A stretch of DNA of 5,211 nucleotides, from the IMG/VR virus record IMGVR_UViG_3300029518_000136. The stretch is one strand, 5' to 3'. Position 1 is the first letter of the stretch. Each line of letters starts with the position of its first letter. The stretch is from a virus (Duplodnaviria > Heunggongvirae > Uroviricota > Caudoviricetes). Positions 1 through 5,211 of the stretch are shown here, in pieces. Made by a program: the position numbers and the translations under genes. The notes below the pieces were generated by a model. That model saw only the letters and a program-made list of their open reading frames with translations. It was not told the origin of the DNA and ran no database searches.

Positions 1-640
1 TGTTGATGACCACGAACTGGTGCGCGCAGGGATACGACGCATTCTGGAAGATATAAAGGGTATAAAAGTCGTCGGTGAGGCATCGTGCGGTGAAGACGCC
101 GTTAAGTGGTGCCGGACAAATGCCGTTGACGTGGTGCTAATGGACATGAGTATGCCGGGCATTGGCGGTCTTGAGGCGACGCGTAAAATCGCGCGTTCCA
201 CAGCTGATGTCAAAATCATCATGCTTACCGTCCATACAGAAAACCCTTTACCAGCGAAAGTCATGCAGGCCGGTGCTGCTGGCTACCTCAGCAAAGGCGC
301 GGCTCCGCAGGAAGTCGTGAGTGCGATCCGTTCTGTCTATTCAGGGCAGCGTTACATTGCTTCTGACATCGCTCAACAAATGGCGTTAAGCCAGATCGAA
401 CCAGAAAAAACAGAAAGCCCATTTGCCAGTTTGTCTGAACGTGAATTGCAGATTATGCTGATGATCACCAAGGGCCAGAAGGTCAATGAGATCTCAGAAC
501 AGCTCAATCTCAGTCCGAAAACGGTGAACAGCTACCGCTATCGTATGTTCAGTAAACTAAACATTCATGGCGATGTTGAGCTGACTCACCTGGCAATTCG
601 CCATGGTCTGTGTAATGCGGAGACATTATCAAGTCAGTGA
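1..640 (+). CDS. uvrY: Response regulator UvrY (BarA/UvrY two-component system, NarL/FixJ family); 5'-partial, about 6 N-terminal codons lie upstream of the window
   Basis: Frame starting at nt 2 translates [20 protein letters not shown]..., so the tool's GTG start at 20 is internal. Receiver-domain motif [14 protein letters not shown] and a C-terminal LuxR/FixJ-type HTH ([42 protein letters not shown]). Stop TGA at 638-640 overlaps the uvrC GTG start (GTGA). Protein matches my recollection of E. coli UvrY. Confidence 0.93.
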
Positions 641-2469
641 GTGATCAGTTTGACGCAAAAGCGTTTTTAAAAACCGTAACCAGCCAGCCAGGCGTTTATC
701 GCATGTACGATGCTGGTGGTACGGTTATCTATGTCGGCAAAGCGAAAGACCTGAAAAAACGGCTTTCCAGCTATTTCCGTAGCAACCTCGCTTCGCGCAA
801 AACCGAAGCGCTGGTCGCCCAGATCCAGCAAATTGATGTAACGGTTACTCATACAGAAACCGAAGCGCTGTTGCTGGAACACAACTACATCAAACTCTAT
901 CAGCCGCGTTACAACGTTTTGCTACGCGATGATAAATCTTATCCCTTTATCTTCCTGAGTGGCGATACCCATCCGCGTCTGGCGATGCATCGTGGTGCGA
1001 AGCATGCTAAAGGTGAATATTTCGGCCCGTTCCCGAATGGCTATGCCGTACGTGAAACACTGGCGCTACTGCAAAAGATTTTCCCCATTCGCCAGTGCGA
1101 AAATAGTGTTTATCGCAATCGCTCGCGTCCGTGTCTGCAATATCAGATAGGGCGCTGTCTGGGACCGTGCGTTGAAGGACTGGTGAGTGAAGAAGAATAC
1201 GCTCAGCAGGTCGAGTATGTGCGCCTGTTTTTGTCTGGCAAAGATGATCAGGTGCTTACGCAACTCATTAGCCGTATGGAAACTGCCAGCCAGAATCTGG
1301 AGTTTGAAGAAGCGGCACGTATTCGCGACCAAATTCAGGCGGTGCGACGCGTCACCGAAAAACAGTTTGTGTCCAATACCGGCGACGACCTCGACGTTAT
1401 TGGTGTGGCGTTCGATGCGGGAATGGCTTGTGTCCATGTATTGTTCATTCGTCAGGGCAAAGTGCTCGGCAGCCGCAGCTATTTCCCGAAAGTGCCTGGC
1501 GGTACGGAACTGAGCGAGGTGGTAGAAACCTTCGTAGGTCAGTTCTATTTACAAGGCAGCCAGATGCGCACCTTACCGGGTGAGATCCTGCTCGATTTTA
1601 ATCTTAGCGATAAAACGCTGCTCGCCGATTCCCTTTCAGAACTGGCGGGACGCAAGATTAATGTTCAAACCAAACCTCGCGGCGATCGGGCGCGTTATCT
1701 GAAACTCGCGCGCACCAATGCGGCGACGGCCTTAACCAGCAAACTTTCGCAGCAATCTACCGTTCACCAGCGACTGACCGCGCTTGCCAGCGTGTTGAAA
1801 TTGCCGGAAGTGAAGCGGATGGAGTGCTTTGACATCAGCCATACCATGGGTGAACAAACCGTCGCTTCCTGTGTGGTGTTTGATGCTAACGGCCCGCTGC
1901 GTGCGGAGTATCGGCGCTATAACATTACTGGCATCACGCCGGGCGATGATTATGCGGCGATGAATCAGGTGCTGCGTCGGCGTTATGGTAAAGCCATTGA
2001 CGACAGTAAGATCCCGGATGTGATCCTTATCGACGGCGGCAAAGGCCAGCTTGCGCAGGCGAAAAATGTCTTCGCCGAACTGGATGTCTCATGGGATAAA
2101 AATCATCCGCTGCTTCTTGGCGTTGCCAAAGGAGCAGATCGTAAGGCTGGGCTGGAAACGCTGTTCTTTGAGCCGGAAGGTGAGGGATTTATTTTGCCGC
2201 CAGATTCTCCCGCGCTGCATGTTATCCAGCATATTCGCGATGAATCACACGATCACGCGATTGGCGGGCACCGTAAGAAACGGGCGAAGGTCAAAAATAC
2301 CAGTTCCCTGGAAACCATTGAAGGCGTCGGGCCAAAACGTCGGCAAATGTTGTTGAAATATATGGGCGGTTTGCAAGGTTTACGTAACGCCAGCGTTGAG
2401 GAAATTGCAAAAGTGCCGGGTATTTCGCAAGGTCTGGCAGAAAAGATCTTCTGGTCGTTGAAACATTGA
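637..2469 (+). CDS. uvrC: Excinuclease ABC subunit C (UvrC), 610 aa, GTG start
   Basis: N-terminal GIY-YIG nuclease signature ([24 protein letters not shown] ... YNV), central UvrBC-interaction region, C-terminal helix-hairpin-helix ([40 protein letters not shown]). Length and N-terminus [14 protein letters not shown] match E. coli UvrC as I recall it. 4-nt overlap with the uvrY stop. Confidence 0.95.
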
Positions 2470-2525
2470 TGTCTCTGTAGCAACATAGGGGTAATCTTAC
2501 TGACAACAGATAGTTACCCGTCATT

Positions 2526-3074
2526 ATGCAATTTAATATCCCTACGTTGCTTACACTGTTCCGTGTCATCCTTATCCCATTCTTTGTATTGGTCTTTTAT
2601 CTGCCTGTCACCTGGTCGCCGTTTGCCGCCGCGCTCATTTTCTGCGTCGCGGCGGTGACTGACTGGTTCGATGGTTTTCTGGCACGCCGCTGGAACCAGA
2701 GTACCCGGTTTGGTGCTTTCCTTGACCCTGTGGCAGATAAAGTTCTCGTGGCTATCGCCATGGTGCTGGTAACCGAGCATTATCACAGCTGGTGGGTGAC
2801 CTTACCGGCAGCAACGATGATCGCCCGTGAAATTATTATTTCTGCGCTACGTGAATGGATGGCGGAGTTGGGTAAACGCAGTAGCGTGGCTGTCTCCTGG
2901 ATTGGGAAAGTGAAAACCACTGCCCAGATGGTGGCGTTGGCCTGGCTGCTGTGGCGTCCGAACATTTGGGTTGAGTACGCCGGTATTGCACTTTTCTTTG
3001 TGGCTGCGGTACTGACTCTGTGGTCAATGTTGCAATATTTGAGCGCTGCGCGTGCAGATTTGCTTGATCAGTGA
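2526..3074 (+). CDS. pgsA: CDP-diacylglycerol--glycerol-3-phosphate 3-phosphatidyltransferase (phosphatidylglycerophosphate synthase), 182 aa
   Basis: CDP-alcohol phosphatidyltransferase motif D-G-x2-A-R ... G-x3-D-x3-D ([27 protein letters not shown]), multiple hydrophobic transmembrane segments, length 182 aa. Conserved gene order uvrC-pgsA-tRNA operon. Confidence 0.94.
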
Positions 3075-3124
3075 TCGTTTCGGCGCAATTTTCAGCAAAC
3101 GATCAAAAGTGGTGAAAAATATCG

Positions 3125-3152
3125 TTGACTCATCGCGCCAGGTAAGTAGAAT
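3125..3152 (+). promoter_or_regulatory. Putative sigma70 promoter of the glyW-cysT-leuZ tRNA operon (-35 TTGACT 3125-3130, 16-nt spacer, -10 TAGAAT 3147-3152)
   Basis: Near-consensus hexamers with 16-nt spacing about 75 nt upstream of the tRNA-Gly 5' end; A-rich stretch just upstream (3105-3120) resembling an UP element; GC-containing segment directly downstream of the -10. Sequence-only prediction. Confidence 0.45.
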
Positions 3153-3225
3153 GCAACGCATCGAACGGCGGCACTGATTGCCAGACGATAATAAAATCAA
3201 GTGATTAACTGATTGCTTGATGAAT

Positions 3226-3301
<76 letters not shown>

Positions 3302-3355
3302 GTTTAAAAGACATCGGCGTCAAGCGGATGTCTGGCTGAAAGGCCTGAAGAATTT

Positions 3356-3429
3356 GGCGCGTTAACAAAGCGGTTATGTAGCGGATTGCAAATCCGTCTA
3401 GTCCGGTTCGACTCCGGAACGCGCCTCCA
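3356..3429 (+). tRNA. cysT: tRNA-Cys (anticodon GCA), 74 nt
   Basis: GGCGCGTTAACAAAGCGGTTATGTAGCGGATTGCAAATCCGTCTAGTCCGGTTCGACTCCGGAACGCGCCTCCA: acceptor stem GGCGCGT/ACGCGCC, anticodon loop with GCA, T-loop TTCGACT, encoded CCA. Confidence 0.95.
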
Positions 3430-3441
3430 CTTTCTTCCCGA

Positions 3442-3528
3442 GCCCGGATGGTGGAATCGGTAGACACAAGGGATTTAAAATCCCTCGGCGTTCGCGCTGT
3501 GTGGGTTCAAGTCCCACTCCGGGTACCA
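3442..3528 (+). tRNA. leuZ: tRNA-Leu (anticodon UAA), 87 nt, long variable arm
   Basis: GCCCGGATGGTGGAATCGGTAGACACAAGGGATTTAAAATCCC...GGGTTCAAGTCCC...CCGGGTACCA: anticodon stem-loop GGGAT-TTTAAAA-ATCCC with TAA anticodon, class II variable arm, T-loop TTCAAGT, encoded CCA. T-stem here reads GTGGG/CCCAC. Confidence 0.92.
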
Positions 3529-3567
3529 TGGGAAAGAATAGAATAATCAAAGCAATAAGCAGTGTCG

Positions 3568-3599
3568 TGAAACCACCTACGGGTGGTTTTTTTGTTTTT
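3568..3599 (+). terminator. Rho-independent terminator downstream of the tRNA operon
   Basis: 8-bp stem AAACCACC (3570-3577) / GGTGGTTT (3582-3589) closing a UACG (UNCG-type) tetraloop, followed by TTTTGTTTTTG. Confidence 0.65.
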
Positions 3600-3618
3600 G
3601 TGCTTCATGTTCACCATT

Positions 3619-3641
3619 GTTTCGCCATTCAGTTTCGCCAT
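3619..3641. repeat. Tandem direct repeat GTTTCGCCAT x2 (3619-3628 and 3632-3641) in the att-int spacer
   Basis: Two identical 10-mers with 13-bp periodicity read directly from the sequence, lying between the tRNA-operon terminator and the int 3' end. Candidate arm-type recombinase binding sites. Confidence 0.3.
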
Positions 3642-3664
3642 AAAAAGAGGGCATTACTGCCCTC
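3641..3664 (-). terminator. Hairpin with T-tract on the - strand at the int stop codon (putative int terminator)
   Basis: Perfect 7-bp inverted repeat GAGGGCA (3647-3653) / TGCCCTC (3658-3664) with a 4-nt loop containing the int stop codon; on the - strand it is followed by TTTTTA (plus-strand A-run 3642-3646). Confidence 0.4.
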
Positions 3665-4664
3665 CAACGACCGGAACAACTGAAATTCTTCGATTATATC
3701 TCGCTGTTTGTGAGGCGTTTTTATGACCTGAAATTTCTTGTTTCTCACTCAGCGTACCTTCAAGATCCGAAATTCCTTTAGCTTTTAGATCATGGAAAGT
3801 GAACTGGAAATCGAGGTCTGGATATTTCTCAGAAGCAAGTTTTTTAGTCTTCATCCATTGCGCATTAAAAGCATCGCGCGTGTATCGCAGACCTGATGGC
3901 TGGTGGATGACAAAAATACTTACCATCCCGCTGTTAAGATGAATGCTGTCAGCAAGATTAACGGCATCCTCCAGACGTTTTGTCCAGGCCTTGATCTGGC
4001 TAACTGCGGTTTTACTCTGCTGGATTAAAATTCCTTCGCTCAATAATTGACTCTTTTTTAGGTCAAGAATGTCTCCCTGGCGGGCACAACATAGATATGC
4101 CAACTCCATTGCAACTTTTACGGGAATAGAAGCAACGCTATAAAGTGCATCATATTCCCTGTCGCTAATATAACGGGTCCGAGCCTGCTCTTTAAATTGC
4201 TTCACTCCATGGCAAGGATTCATCTTCACCTTTCCTCGTTCGTATGCCCACCGAAACACCCTGGACATAAATGCTTTCTCGCGGTTAGCCTGAACTCTGC
4301 TCTTAACTCCTCGTTTATCCATATATTTTCTGATGTGCTCGGGCTTGATGTTATCCGGCTTCATTTTCCCGAAGACAACATTTACCTTTGAACCGTATTT
4401 TCTGTAGTCTTTACGTGTTTCAGTTGCTAACTCGTGGAAATCGCCGGAATTAAAGAACTCTTCACAAAGTGCGTTGAAGTTAGTACCAACCCTTAAATCG
4501 TTTATGAAGTTTTCGTAAGCTGCCCATACCTGCGATTTTGTTAGATCAGGATTGCACAACCTGACGGTACGACCATCTGTTGTACGAAACTCATAAGCAG
4601 ATTTTCCCCGACGAACGCGGGGAGGCATCCAGTTATCATCGGGGTTTTTGCGAGCTCTAGACAT
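3654..4664 (-). CDS. int: Phage-type tyrosine recombinase/integrase (lambda Int family), 336 aa
   Basis: N-terminal arm-binding-like region (NWMPPRVRRGKSAYEFRTTDGRTVRL, compare the lambda Int N-terminus pattern). Catalytic core aligns to lambda Int: box I Arg in ARQGDILDL, Lys in QQSKT, box II FTFHDLK (His present, Arg position is Lys), second His in SGHK, nucleophile Tyr in TARYNR. Position adjacent to a tRNA 3' end. Confidence 0.9.
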   Translation of the reverse strand: MSRARKNPDDNWMPPRVRRGKSAYEFRTTDGRTVRLCNPDLTKSQVWAAYENFINDLRVGTNFNALCEEFFNSGDFHELATETRKDYRKYGSKVNVVFGKMKPDNIKPEHIRKYMDKRGVKSRVQANREKAFMSRVFRWAYERGKVKMNPCHGVKQFKEQARTRYISDREYDALYSVASIPVKVAMELAYLCCARQGDILDLKKSQLLSEGILIQQSKTAVSQIKAWTKRLEDAVNLADSIHLNSGMVSIFVIHQPSGLRYTRDAFNAQWMKTKKLASEKYPDLDFQFTFHDLKAKGISDLEGTLSEKQEISGHKNASQTARYNRRISVVPVVGGQ

Positions 4665-4891
4665 TACATATCCTTAAAGTTTGGTTCTTCTTCCTCTGGA
4701 TTACTCACTATCAACTTAAGGCCAACCGGGTTTGATACATGATCCCATGTTGTTCCTGGTCTGCCGTCCTTACGTGGGATAAAAAATACCCCACTATCCC
4801 TCAGAGCTTTACACTGGAGGGAAGGGCGACGATAACCAGTTAATTGATAGAGGTCATCTGGAGTAAGAAAACGTTGGATTTGTCCGCTCAT
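4664..4891 (-). CDS. xis: Excisionase-like small DNA-binding protein (Xis), 75 aa
   Basis: Small ORF directly upstream of int, overlapping it by 1 nt (TAATG). Pattern YRRPSLQCKALRDSGVFFIPRKDGRPGTTW resembles the lambda Xis winged-helix region (RRPRSL...R...IFPPPVKDGREYLF). GGAG Shine-Dalgarno 8 nt upstream of the ATG. Confidence 0.7.
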   Translation of the reverse strand: MSGQIQRFLTPDDLYQLTGYRRPSLQCKALRDSGVFFIPRKDGRPGTTWDHVSNPVGLKLIVSNPEEEEPNFKDM

Positions 4892-4924
4892 ACATAGTTC
4901 TCCACTTAAACCGGCTGCACCCGG

Positions 4925-5203
4925 TTACTTCATTCTGTAAGCACACGATGAACAACCGTGACGGGTTCCATCGTTGCAATTGCGACATAATGGACTTTCT
5001 TTCGAACTTTTCCCATTTAGCTGACGAAGTATCTCTACTGGCACCATTACCGGCATTGGTACACGAATCACCATGCTTCTGAGTTCAGCAATTTCGTTTG
5101 CCTGTTCGAACACTCGCGCCTTACAGTATTCAGCTTCAGATTTCCACCATGCCACATCCGCTTTGAGGCGACGCCCACGCCGCTGCTTGAGTTTACTGGG
5201 CAT
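4925..5203 (-). CDS. Hypothetical small Cys-rich phage protein (C-x2-C-x7-C-x2-C zinc-ribbon-like C-terminus); possibly 5'-extended beyond the window
   Basis: 92-aa ORF upstream of xis with a basic N-terminus (KLKQRRGRRLK) and C-terminal CRNCNDGTRHGCSSC. The reading frame stays open to the window edge, so the true start may lie beyond 5211. Occupies the position that small ea-type ORFs occupy upstream of xis in lambdoid phages. Confidence 0.5.
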   Translation of the reverse strand: MPSKLKQRRGRRLKADVAWWKSEAEYCKARVFEQANEIAELRSMVIRVPMPVMVPVEILRQLNGKSSKESPLCRNCNDGTRHGCSSCAYRMK

Positions 5204-5211
5204 GAATATTC

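Follow-up and report, generated by a model that had tools for sequence, protein, structure and literature searches.

Probable attL junction of an mEp390-like lambdoid phage inside the tRNA-Leu gene leuZ of Escherichia coli

Introduction

The DNA analyzed here, a stretch of 5,211 nucleotides from the IMG/VR virus record IMGVR_UViG_3300029518_000136 (hereafter the window), begins as E. coli core chromosome, passes through a tRNA operon and ends in genes of phage type. It raises the questions of which kind of element adjoins the tRNA-Leu gene leuZ and at which position the chromosome gives way to it. The original prediction, made from the letters alone, had described a tRNA-targeting prophage whose boundary lies at the CCA of the tRNA. 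We conclude that the region is very probably attL (B-O-P′), where a lambdoid temperate phage of mEp390 type, intact or as a remnant, is integrated in leuZ. Insertion at leuZ is of an ordinary, already documented kind, as the gene is a published prophage and integrative-element site in STEC (PMC7067040, PMC8767318).

The chromosomal side and the tRNA operon

Positions 1-3471 are E. coli core DNA in the order uvrY′-uvrC-pgsA-glyW-cysT-leuZ with 99% identity to K-12, and when the comparison is extended to 1-3595 the identity is 98.9%. Three tRNA genes were identified, of which the first two are chromosomal, lie 5′ of leuZ and belong to the same operon, with leuZ as its last gene.

3226-3301, plus strand: tRNA-Gly gene glyW (ARAGORN, Rfam tRNA, K-12 annotation)
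3356-3429, plus strand: tRNA-Cys gene cysT (ARAGORN, Rfam tRNA, K-12 annotation)
3442-3528, plus strand: tRNA-Leu(UAA) gene leuZ, a hybrid gene (ARAGORN, Rfam at 57.6 bits, alignment, cloverleaf fold)

An Rfam scan of 3100-5211 in E-value mode returned these three tRNAs and nothing else, with no trailer family. Beyond the operon the G+C content falls from 0.512 (1-3471) to 0.447 (3602-5211), as expected from the AT-richer region that had been described past the tRNA.

Empty sites, attR copies and the state of the element

The ordinary arrangement leuZ/3′ETS-leuZ/yecA is uninterrupted in 3793 of the 5426 complete E. coli genomes searched with a balanced query, K-12 included, and a window-type integrase is carried by five of the 5426. 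As the original prediction had it, a normal chromosomal gene, yecA, follows leuZ in K-12, and these counts bear out the view of a strain-variable insertion. About 1630 E. coli genomes (~30% of the complete ones) are split at the same tRNA position as the window, and an element of some kind is probably present at these sites.

The window stops at 5211, short of its own attR, and the evidence for attR comes from related genomes, where the search for a repeat of the tRNA-Leu 3′ segment suggested by the original prediction was successful. In GDSC2BY4G, a complete siphovirus prophage with a 97%-identical int-xis module lies between leuZ and yecA; terminase, portal, capsid and tail genes are found between attL and attR, and the attR repeat is located 45,050 bp downstream. 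In MB20, the repeat is 5.6 kb downstream, in a degraded remnant cut down by IS1. Together with the empty sites and the drop in G+C content, these repeats support the attL architecture that had been proposed.

The MB20 case shows what a defective element at this site looks like, with int, xis, a ParB fragment, IS1, gtr genes and humD in 5.6 kb, and as the window covers just 1.7 kb of its element, the window strain might also hold only int-xis and a few genes behind a fossil attL. We regard this as unlikely. The int, xis and 92-amino acid (aa) open reading frames are all intact in the window. Four contigs that match it over its full length at 99.3-99.4% identity run on for at least 10 kb with intact lambdoid early genes (cI-like, cro-like, cII-like, replication and ParB-like), and the IMG/VR prophage contigs whose Int is 98-99% identical measure 39-50 kb. 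The reading of the region as attL of an mEp390-like temperate phage is kept, and the element in the window strain may be active.

The crossover zone lies inside the tRNA gene

Alignment of attB, attL, attP and attR placed the crossover within the tRNA gene, upstream of the trailer.

3473-3501, no strand assigned: crossover zone (att core), from alignment of attB, attL, attP and attR
3529-3595, plus strand: leuZ 3′ trailer, predicted copy of the 3′ETS-leuZ sRNA sponge (K-12 annotation, repeat ends, terminator scan)

Positions 3473-3501 are the sole stretch identical in attB (K-12), attL (window), attP (mEp390) and attR (MB20 and GDSC2BY4G). The left limit is set by a switch between host-type and phage-type letters at 3468-3472 and by the L007 junction, whose similarity begins exactly at 3473. 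The right limit is set by T3502, which is of phage type in attL and replaced by the host-type C in attR. From 3502 on, attL shows the phage-type letter and attR the host-type letter at every variant position, and this includes the T-stem and trailer variants in the attR copies of both GDSC2BY4G and MB20. The T-stem pair T3502-A3516 of the window is a compensated change relative to the C-G pair of K-12.

Similarity to the empty-site genomes runs past the CCA (3528) as far as 3595, the end of the att duplication, since the element comes with a copy of both the leuZ 3′ half and the 3′ trailer. The same similarity could be read in another way, namely that the junction is at the CCA and that the leuZ 3′ half and trailer (3502-3595) belong to the chromosome and vary between strains; the 3′ end of the gene is used by many tRNA-targeting elements, and 3529-3595 is ~94% identical to K-12. 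This is very improbable, since attR copies start at tRNA nucleotide (nt) 31/32, the attP of the free phage mEp390 has the same segment from nt 31, and the variants from 3502 on, the L007 boundary and the ~1630 genomes split at the same tRNA position all argue against it. A junction at the CCA was rejected on the attR start, the phage-type and host-type variants, the mEp390 attP and L007, which point to 3473-3501. Of the original description, the housekeeping block stands as matched to K-12, and its end at the CCA has to be moved to this zone.

These alignments indicate that strand exchange takes place within 3473-3501, inside the tRNA around the anticodon loop. The loop itself (3474-3480) is most likely the 7-bp overlap. 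At attL, leuZ is chromosomal in its 5′ part and phage-derived from the anticodon loop onwards; the phage supplies tRNA nt 32-87, a full copy of 3′ETS-leuZ and the operon terminator, up to 3595. In the proposed mechanism, Int would bind core sites around the anticodon stem-loop and exchange strands inside 3473-3501. Because attP carries leuZ nt 32-87, the whole 3′ trailer (3′ETS-leuZ sponge RNA) and the terminator, integration would rebuild an intact, terminated operon at attL, and the original leuZ 3′ half would be displaced ~40-50 kb away, to attR.

A lambda-type integrase with lysine at the second arginine position

The phage side of the junction encodes genes on the opposite strand from the tRNA operon, with int reading towards the tRNA.

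3610-3617, 3621-3628 and 3634-3641, plus strand: three direct repeats TTCRCCAT, candidate P′ arm-type Int sites
3646-3665, minus strand: hairpin followed by a T-run, terminator-like for the int transcript (terminator scan; centroid hairpin z -2.6)
3654-4664, minus strand: int, tyrosine integrase of 336 aa (Pfam Phage_integrase and Phage_int_M; PHROG 1, integrase)
4664-4891, minus strand: xis-like gene, DUF4224, 75 aa (Pfam DUF4224, E = 3.6e-14; PHROG 1266 'excisionase', E = 1.5e-29)
4925-5203, minus strand: early-left phage ORF of 92 aa (PHROG 14816, function unknown, E = 1.6e-34)

This arrangement of int, xis and a small phage-like ORF had been foreseen, and the Pfam and PHROG matches agree with it. 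NCBIfam gave no specific family for Int, the xis-like protein or the 92-aa ORF.

Lambda Int was the top PDB sequence match of the window Int, and hhalign aligned the two proteins with a probability of 97.7%. When the AF2 model of Int was searched with Foldseek, 338 columns were aligned to full-length lambda Int (1z1b_B, E = 4.5e-13). No Pfam match to the arm domain was found; in the model, the N-terminus forms strands at 17-19, 24-27 and 33-37 and a helix at 43-56 (pLDDT about 82-88), and the helices of the core-binding part (63-142) come after this arm-binding domain. As modeled, Int is a lambda-type tyrosine integrase with arm-binding, core-binding and catalytic domains.

The active-site residues of Int are R195, K218, H291, K294, H314 and Y323. 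Five of them (R195, K218, H291, H314 and Y323) align with R212, K235, H308, H333 and Y342 of lambda and are invariant in the relatives. The second catalytic arginine (Arg II, R311 of lambda, in the RKHRH pentad) is absent, as lambda FHELR corresponds to FHDLK in the window, so that K294 occupies its position. Lysine was found at this position in all the 37 intact genome relatives and throughout a 36-sequence alignment consisting of 35 database homologues and the window's own Int. Since Arg II is Lys, the case for activity does not come from a canonical active site; that the lineage is active is argued from its spread and from mEp390 being an isolated temperate phage.

We then consider the target of this lineage. 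Relatives of Int with 50-98% identity occur in many genera, and tRNA-Leu(UAA) was found 115-145 bp from them in 32 of the 60 loci scanned (the first 60 of 73 related loci), the other 28 having no tRNA-Leu in the available sequence. The att flanks come from ~20 IMG/VR Int loci, most loci ending right at the int stop codon. The loci scanned for tRNAs suggest that the lineage always targets tRNA-Leu(UAA).

Arm-type repeats, the xis-like gene and the adjoining ORF

The motif TTCRCCAT has four matches in the window against 0.43 expected, and three of the four are clustered at 3610-3641. It is conserved in relatives as three to four copies, and in other genera the word varies along with the integrase subgroup. 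Candidate P-arm copies are present near -113 and -45 in both mEp390 and L011, and in attR and attP of relatives. We read the repeats at 3610-3641 as probable P′ arm-type integrase-binding sites, and a heterobivalent Int of lambda type would bind such arm-type repeats, with three of them in the P′ arm. The terminator-like hairpin at 3646-3665 overlaps the int stop codon.

The stop codon of the xis-like gene overlaps the start codon of int, 22 of 24 distant relatives have the gene immediately before int, and its counterpart in mEp390 (gp28) is annotated as excisionase. The AF2 model has a beta-alpha-alpha-beta-beta topology with a low pLDDT of 62. Foldseek with this model gave no significant match: the best E-value was 0.9, and MerR-type winged helices came out on top, Pukovnik Xis being ranked 47th. 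Aligned with lambda Xis by hhalign, the DUF4224 family reached a probability of 1.4%, and the PDB sequence search returned nothing meaningful. None of these searches linked the protein significantly, by structure or by sequence, to a characterized Xis, and our literature search found no paper describing DUF4224 as an excisionase. From its position and annotation, the DUF4224 protein most likely acts as an excisionase, a putative recombination directionality factor, and excision would use this upstream protein. The 92-aa ORF, whose C-terminus is Cys-rich, is the counterpart of mEp390 gp29, and a 279-bp ORF is found at its position both in mEp390 and in the sibling contigs.

Comparison with mEp390, lambda and the anticodon-loop class

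The closest isolated comparison is Enterobacteria phage mEp390 (Hendrixvirinae), whose nucleotide sequence is 78% identical to that of the window across attP, int, xis and the next ORF. The genes follow one another in the same order and agree in length (int 1011 bp, xis 228 bp, ORF 279 bp). The leuZ-like attP segment and the TTCGCCAT repeats are shared as well, and the 121-bp attP of the mEp390 record is exactly this segment. The phage differs in that its Int is 87% identical at the protein level, it has four arm repeats instead of three, and it carries another version of the trailer, while the trailer of the window is identical to that of other E. coli and Citrobacter elements. The least probable reading is that of a phage satellite or non-phage integrative island using a phage-like integrase. 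In its favour, other non-phage islands occupy leuZ, a defence-type island (type I R-M, Mrr, deaminase) adjoins in L007 and an 'IE at leuZ' is reported in STEC. Against it, the order int-xis-gp29-like ORF is that of mEp390, the sibling contigs have cI/cro/cII-like and replication genes, and in the related complete genome the DNA from attL to attR encodes terminase, portal, capsid and tail proteins.

The temperate-phage junction resembles that of lambda in the three-domain Int, in int adjoining the P′ arm and reading towards att, in xis lying directly upstream and overlapping int, in the prophage order attL-int-xis, and in three P′ arm repeats with candidate P-arm sites. In contrast to lambda, whose attB is intergenic between gal and bio, the target here is a tRNA gene; the att homology spans about 123 bp, against 15 bp in lambda, some 130-165 bp separate the P′ repeats from the crossover zone, lysine replaces R311, and no sequence similarity between the xis-like protein and lambda Xis can be detected.

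Integration sublocations in tRNA and tmRNA genes were reportedly classified by Williams in 2002, with an anticodon-loop class among them. The present junction is similar to that class, as the crossover zone includes the anticodon loop and is flanked by the symmetric anticodon stem, and the tRNA gene is restored by the 3′ portion that the element brings along. Unlike in that class, the carried segment reaches 67 nt beyond the CCA and takes in the terminator as well as the putative trailer sRNA. A strain-variable prophage at a well-known tRNA hot spot is an unsurprising finding, useful for annotation and strain typing. The junction also illustrates, in a clear case, how a phage that targets a tRNA gene would restore the tRNA together with its regulatory 3′ trailer RNA and terminator.

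The phage-borne copy of the 3′ETS-leuZ trailer

The window trailer lies between the leuZ CCA and a Rho-independent terminator at 3569-3593 (terminator scan), and K-12 annotates the ncRNA 3′ETS-leuZ (b4759) at the equivalent place. The sRNA sponge of K-12 was described by Lalaouna et al. (2015), as cited in PMC6191717. It is defined by RNase E release, Hfq binding and lowered RyhB/RybB activity, and the window copy is a predicted one by comparison of letters. The two copies are alike in the CCA-to-terminator position and in the terminator hairpin, and the RyhB/RybB-complementary stretch AAGCAAUAAGCAGUGUCGUG is common to both. The predicted duplex energies are practically equal, being -28.0 (window) and -27.2 kcal/mol (K-12) for RyhB and -20.8 and -20.7 kcal/mol for RybB, as computed on the single-stranded parts, whole-RNA predictions being dominated by terminator pairing. 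In the A-rich (ARN) 5′ part, the window copy shows substitutions and lacks 2 nt, and its terminator loop has one change; in the window strain the operon copy is phage-derived. Our literature search found no paper describing a phage-borne 3′ETS-leuZ.

As the trailer alleles differ in the A-rich Hfq-binding part, prophage carriage could retune sRNA buffering. We offer as a speculation, and as a rather unlikely one, that leuZ lysogens make the sponge from the phage allele, that this may subtly retune the RyhB/RybB buffering of iron and envelope stress, and that phages would be selected to keep the pairing site; the same speculation holds, separately, that the tRNA-Leu(UAA)-specific Int lineage works with lysine in place of the second catalytic arginine. 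If phage-borne trailer alleles act differently from that of the host, they would be an unnoticed source of RyhB/RybB variation among E. coli strains. A detail of note in its own right is that the phage brings its own copy of the tRNA 3′ half and, behind it, of a small regulatory RNA.

The window and its insertion site

Searches with ARAGORN, Rfam, Pfam and PHROG bore out the gene layout read from the sequence, in which int, xis and a phage-like ORF lie on the strand opposite to the tRNA genes.

Features of the window
Truncated by the window start (left 3.4 kb): UvrY
637-2469 (left 3.4 kb): UvrC
2526-3074 (left 3.4 kb): PgsA
3226-3301, plus strand: tRNA-Gly (ARAGORN, Rfam)
3356-3429, plus strand: tRNA-Cys (ARAGORN, Rfam)
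3442-3528, plus strand: tRNA-Leu(UAA), leuZ (ARAGORN, Rfam)
3654-4664, minus strand: int, 336 aa (Pfam Phage_integrase and Phage_int_M; PHROG 1, 'integrase')
4664-4891, minus strand: xis-like gene, 75 aa (Pfam DUF4224; PHROG 1266, 'excisionase')
4925-5203, minus strand: 92-aa ORF (PHROG 14816, a family without assigned function)

The stop codon of the DUF4224 gene overlaps the int start codon. Because positions 1-3595 are 98.9% identical to K-12 MG1655, the host is E. coli. The right part is indeed AT-richer, with a G+C content of 0.447 over 3602-5211 versus 0.512 over 1-3471.

To locate the junction, we aligned attL (the leuZ-proximal junction) of the window and of strain MB20, attB (the empty host site) of K-12, attP (the phage site) of mEp390 and attR (the far junction) of MB20. 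The nearest isolated phage is mEp390 (Hendrixvirinae), whose record marks an attP of 121 bp; its nucleotide identity across attP-int-xis is 78%. All four sites were identical only at 3472-3501. On the left side, the host AAGG (3468-3471) occurs in attL and attB, and the phage GCGT in attP and attR; to the right, T3502 and A3516, a compensated T-stem pair, are found in attL and attP, with C and G in attB and attR, and the trailer variants divide likewise. In addition, the match between the window and contig L007, where this prophage adjoins a different island, starts only at 3473. These switches on either side, together with the start of the L007 match, place the crossover in 3473-3501. Since the duplicated att segment extends to 3595, the element starts inside the tRNA and similarity to the empty site stops 67 nt past the CCA; the CCA itself, where the original prediction had put the junction, is neither of these points. 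Within the crossover interval lies the anticodon loop (3474-3480), with the symmetric anticodon stem on both sides. Other integrases are known to use the anticodon loop as the overlap region, and by analogy we infer that 3474-3480 would play this role here.

Far end and body of the prophage in related genomes

The repeat of the tRNA-Leu 3' segment expected downstream was found in two related genomes. Strain GDSC2BY4G, whose int-xis is 97% identical to that of the window, carries between leuZ and yecA a complete siphovirus prophage with genes for regulation, replication, lysis, terminase, portal, capsid, tail, DinI and HumD, and the leuZ 3' segment with its trailer recurs as a direct repeat 45,050 bp from attL. 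In MB20 (L001 20256-25900), an element of this type is reduced to a 5.6-kb remnant, with both att copies still present around int, xis, a ParB fragment, IS1, an O-antigen modification cluster (gtrA, gtrB and a glucosyltransferase) and humD. The exact Int protein of the window occurs on many public contigs. Four of these match the whole window at 99.3-99.4% identity, and their next 10 kb holds genes that resemble cI, cro and cII, genes for replication and one for a ParB-like protein. In IMG/VR, prophage contigs whose Int is 98-99% identical measure 39-50 kb. A tRNA-Arg(UCU) gene was also noted inside the early region of the prophage (contig L005 4638-4713; also L006, L007 and L010).

Overall, the reading as the attL side of a tRNA-targeting lambdoid prophage is supported, except for the position of the junction. 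Lambdoid integration modules that target a tRNA are standard; this one lies at a published site and has a sequenced phage relative with an annotated attP, and the finding is already known. Two side points may be worth a closer look: that the phage replaces the 3'ETS-leuZ sponge by a copy of its own, and that the integrase has Lys for Arg in its active site.

The phage supplies half of the tRNA and the trailer RNA

The segment 3502-3595 belongs to the phage and contains the 3' half of tRNA-Leu, the full 3' external transcribed spacer and the operon terminator (stem at 3569-3590); the resulting tRNA-Leu looks functional (cloverleaf fold, 57.6 bits). The K-12 leuZ 3' spacer is 3'ETS-leuZ, a sponge for RyhB and RybB (PMC6191717; bioRxiv 10.1101/2021.04.25.441314); its counterpart in the window is 3529-3595. 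Because the prophage carries a full copy, the 3'ETS-leuZ transcribed from the operon in a lysogen would be phage DNA. Compared with K-12, the phage copy lacks 2 nt and bears substitutions in its A-rich 5' part, and one base of the terminator loop is changed; the stretch complementary to RyhB and RybB is kept. Duplex energies predicted on the single-stranded parts were -28.0 (phage) versus -27.2 kcal/mol (K-12) for RyhB, and -20.8 versus -20.7 kcal/mol for RybB. In relatives from other hosts (L037-L091 and L094-L153, loci of Int relatives with att flanks), the acceptor 3' strand supplied by the phage fits the host 5' strand, the pairs being GGCCGG/CCGGCT instead of GCCCGG/CCGGGT.

Repeats next to the att homology and breadth of the lineage

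Immediately past the att homology, three direct repeats TTCRCCAT start at 3610, 3621 and 3634; the window holds four matches to this word versus 0.43 expected, three of them in this cluster. Relatives have 3-4 copies in the same place. In mEp390 and GDSC2BY4G, candidate P-arm copies are found on the left of the core, at distances of about 113 and 45 bp. The word varies with the Int subgroup (L037-L091, L094-L153), being TTCATAATAT, TTCACTAT, TTCCTAATAT or TTCAGAAKAT in more distant ones. These putative sites fit the pattern expected of arm-type sites. A minus-strand hairpin with a T-run (3665-3646) overlaps the int stop codon.

Relatives of Int, 50-98% identical to it, are found in many genera, including Citrobacter, Kluyvera, Enterobacter, Yersinia, Serratia, Pantoea, Erwinia, Xenorhabdus, Arsenophonus, Morganella, Celerinatantimonas and Shewanella. 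When the first 60 of 73 related loci were scanned for tRNAs, int lay 115-145 bp from the tRNA-Leu(UAA) of a Gly-Cys-Leu cluster in 32; the available flanking DNA of the other 28 contained no tRNA-Leu. The order trailer, terminator, repeats is constant. Judged from these loci, the integrase lineage is dedicated to tRNA-Leu(UAA).

leuZ as a variable insertion site

K-12 has the annotated sRNA 3'ETS-leuZ behind leuZ and yecA after it, in line with the ordinary chromosomal gene expected at this place. A balanced query from cysT to the yecA side showed an unbroken leuZ-yecA interval in 3793 of the 5426 complete E. coli genomes. In about 1630 (30%) the query was broken into two places, the split falling at tRNA nt 31/32 (window 3472/3473), and some element probably occupies the interval in these genomes. 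This integrase type was present in only 5 of the 5426, which agrees with a strain-variable accessory insertion. From these counts, leuZ is a busy integration hot spot where this element is rare. Published work on STEC O145:H28 and O121:H19 already names leuZ as a site for prophages and integrative elements (PMC7067040, PMC8767318).

In E. coli strain 6409 (L002 4001-5265), a 100%-identical copy of window 3400-3601 precedes another, very different integrase (27% identity over 104 aa), and past that copy the repeats differ (TGGCAG-type); the same leuZ att homology is therefore common to unrelated integrase lineages. Tandem occupancy was observed in L007 (11011-21011), where an island carrying type I R-M, Mrr-like, PDDEXK and deaminase-domain genes separates leuZ from this prophage, and in locus L175 (7631-7900), where the distal att of the prophage is followed by TTCAGAAKAT-type repeats from a second element. 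P2-like phage records have a 3'ETS-leuZ-like stretch near one end.

Integrase, xis-like protein and the small ORF

Int is lambda-like. Its best PDB sequence match is lambda Int (E 2e-7), hhalign of the family against lambda Int gave a probability of 97.7%, and the AF2 model (36 sequences, pLDDT 76), which has an N-terminal three-strand-plus-helix domain, aligned with lambda Int at full length (1z1b_B) across 338 columns (E 4.5e-13). R195, K218, H291, H314 and Y323 occupy active-site positions, but the second arginine of the pentad, R311 in lambda Int (FHELR), is replaced by K294 (FHDLK; codon 3783-3785, minus strand). All 37 intact genome relatives, which reach down to about 54% identity, have this lysine, as does every member of the 36-sequence database alignment (the window's own Int and 35 database homologues); a group with Lys at this position was absent from one survey of tyrosine recombinase subgroups.

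In 22 of 24 distant relatives, the gene immediately upstream of int is the DUF4224 gene. Since the fold prediction for its product was weak (pLDDT 62) and all structure matches were non-significant, the Xis label rests on position and family annotation. The 92-aa ORF corresponds to gp29 at the same position in mEp390, and its Cys-rich C-terminal stretch CRNCNDGTRHGCSSC might bind metal.
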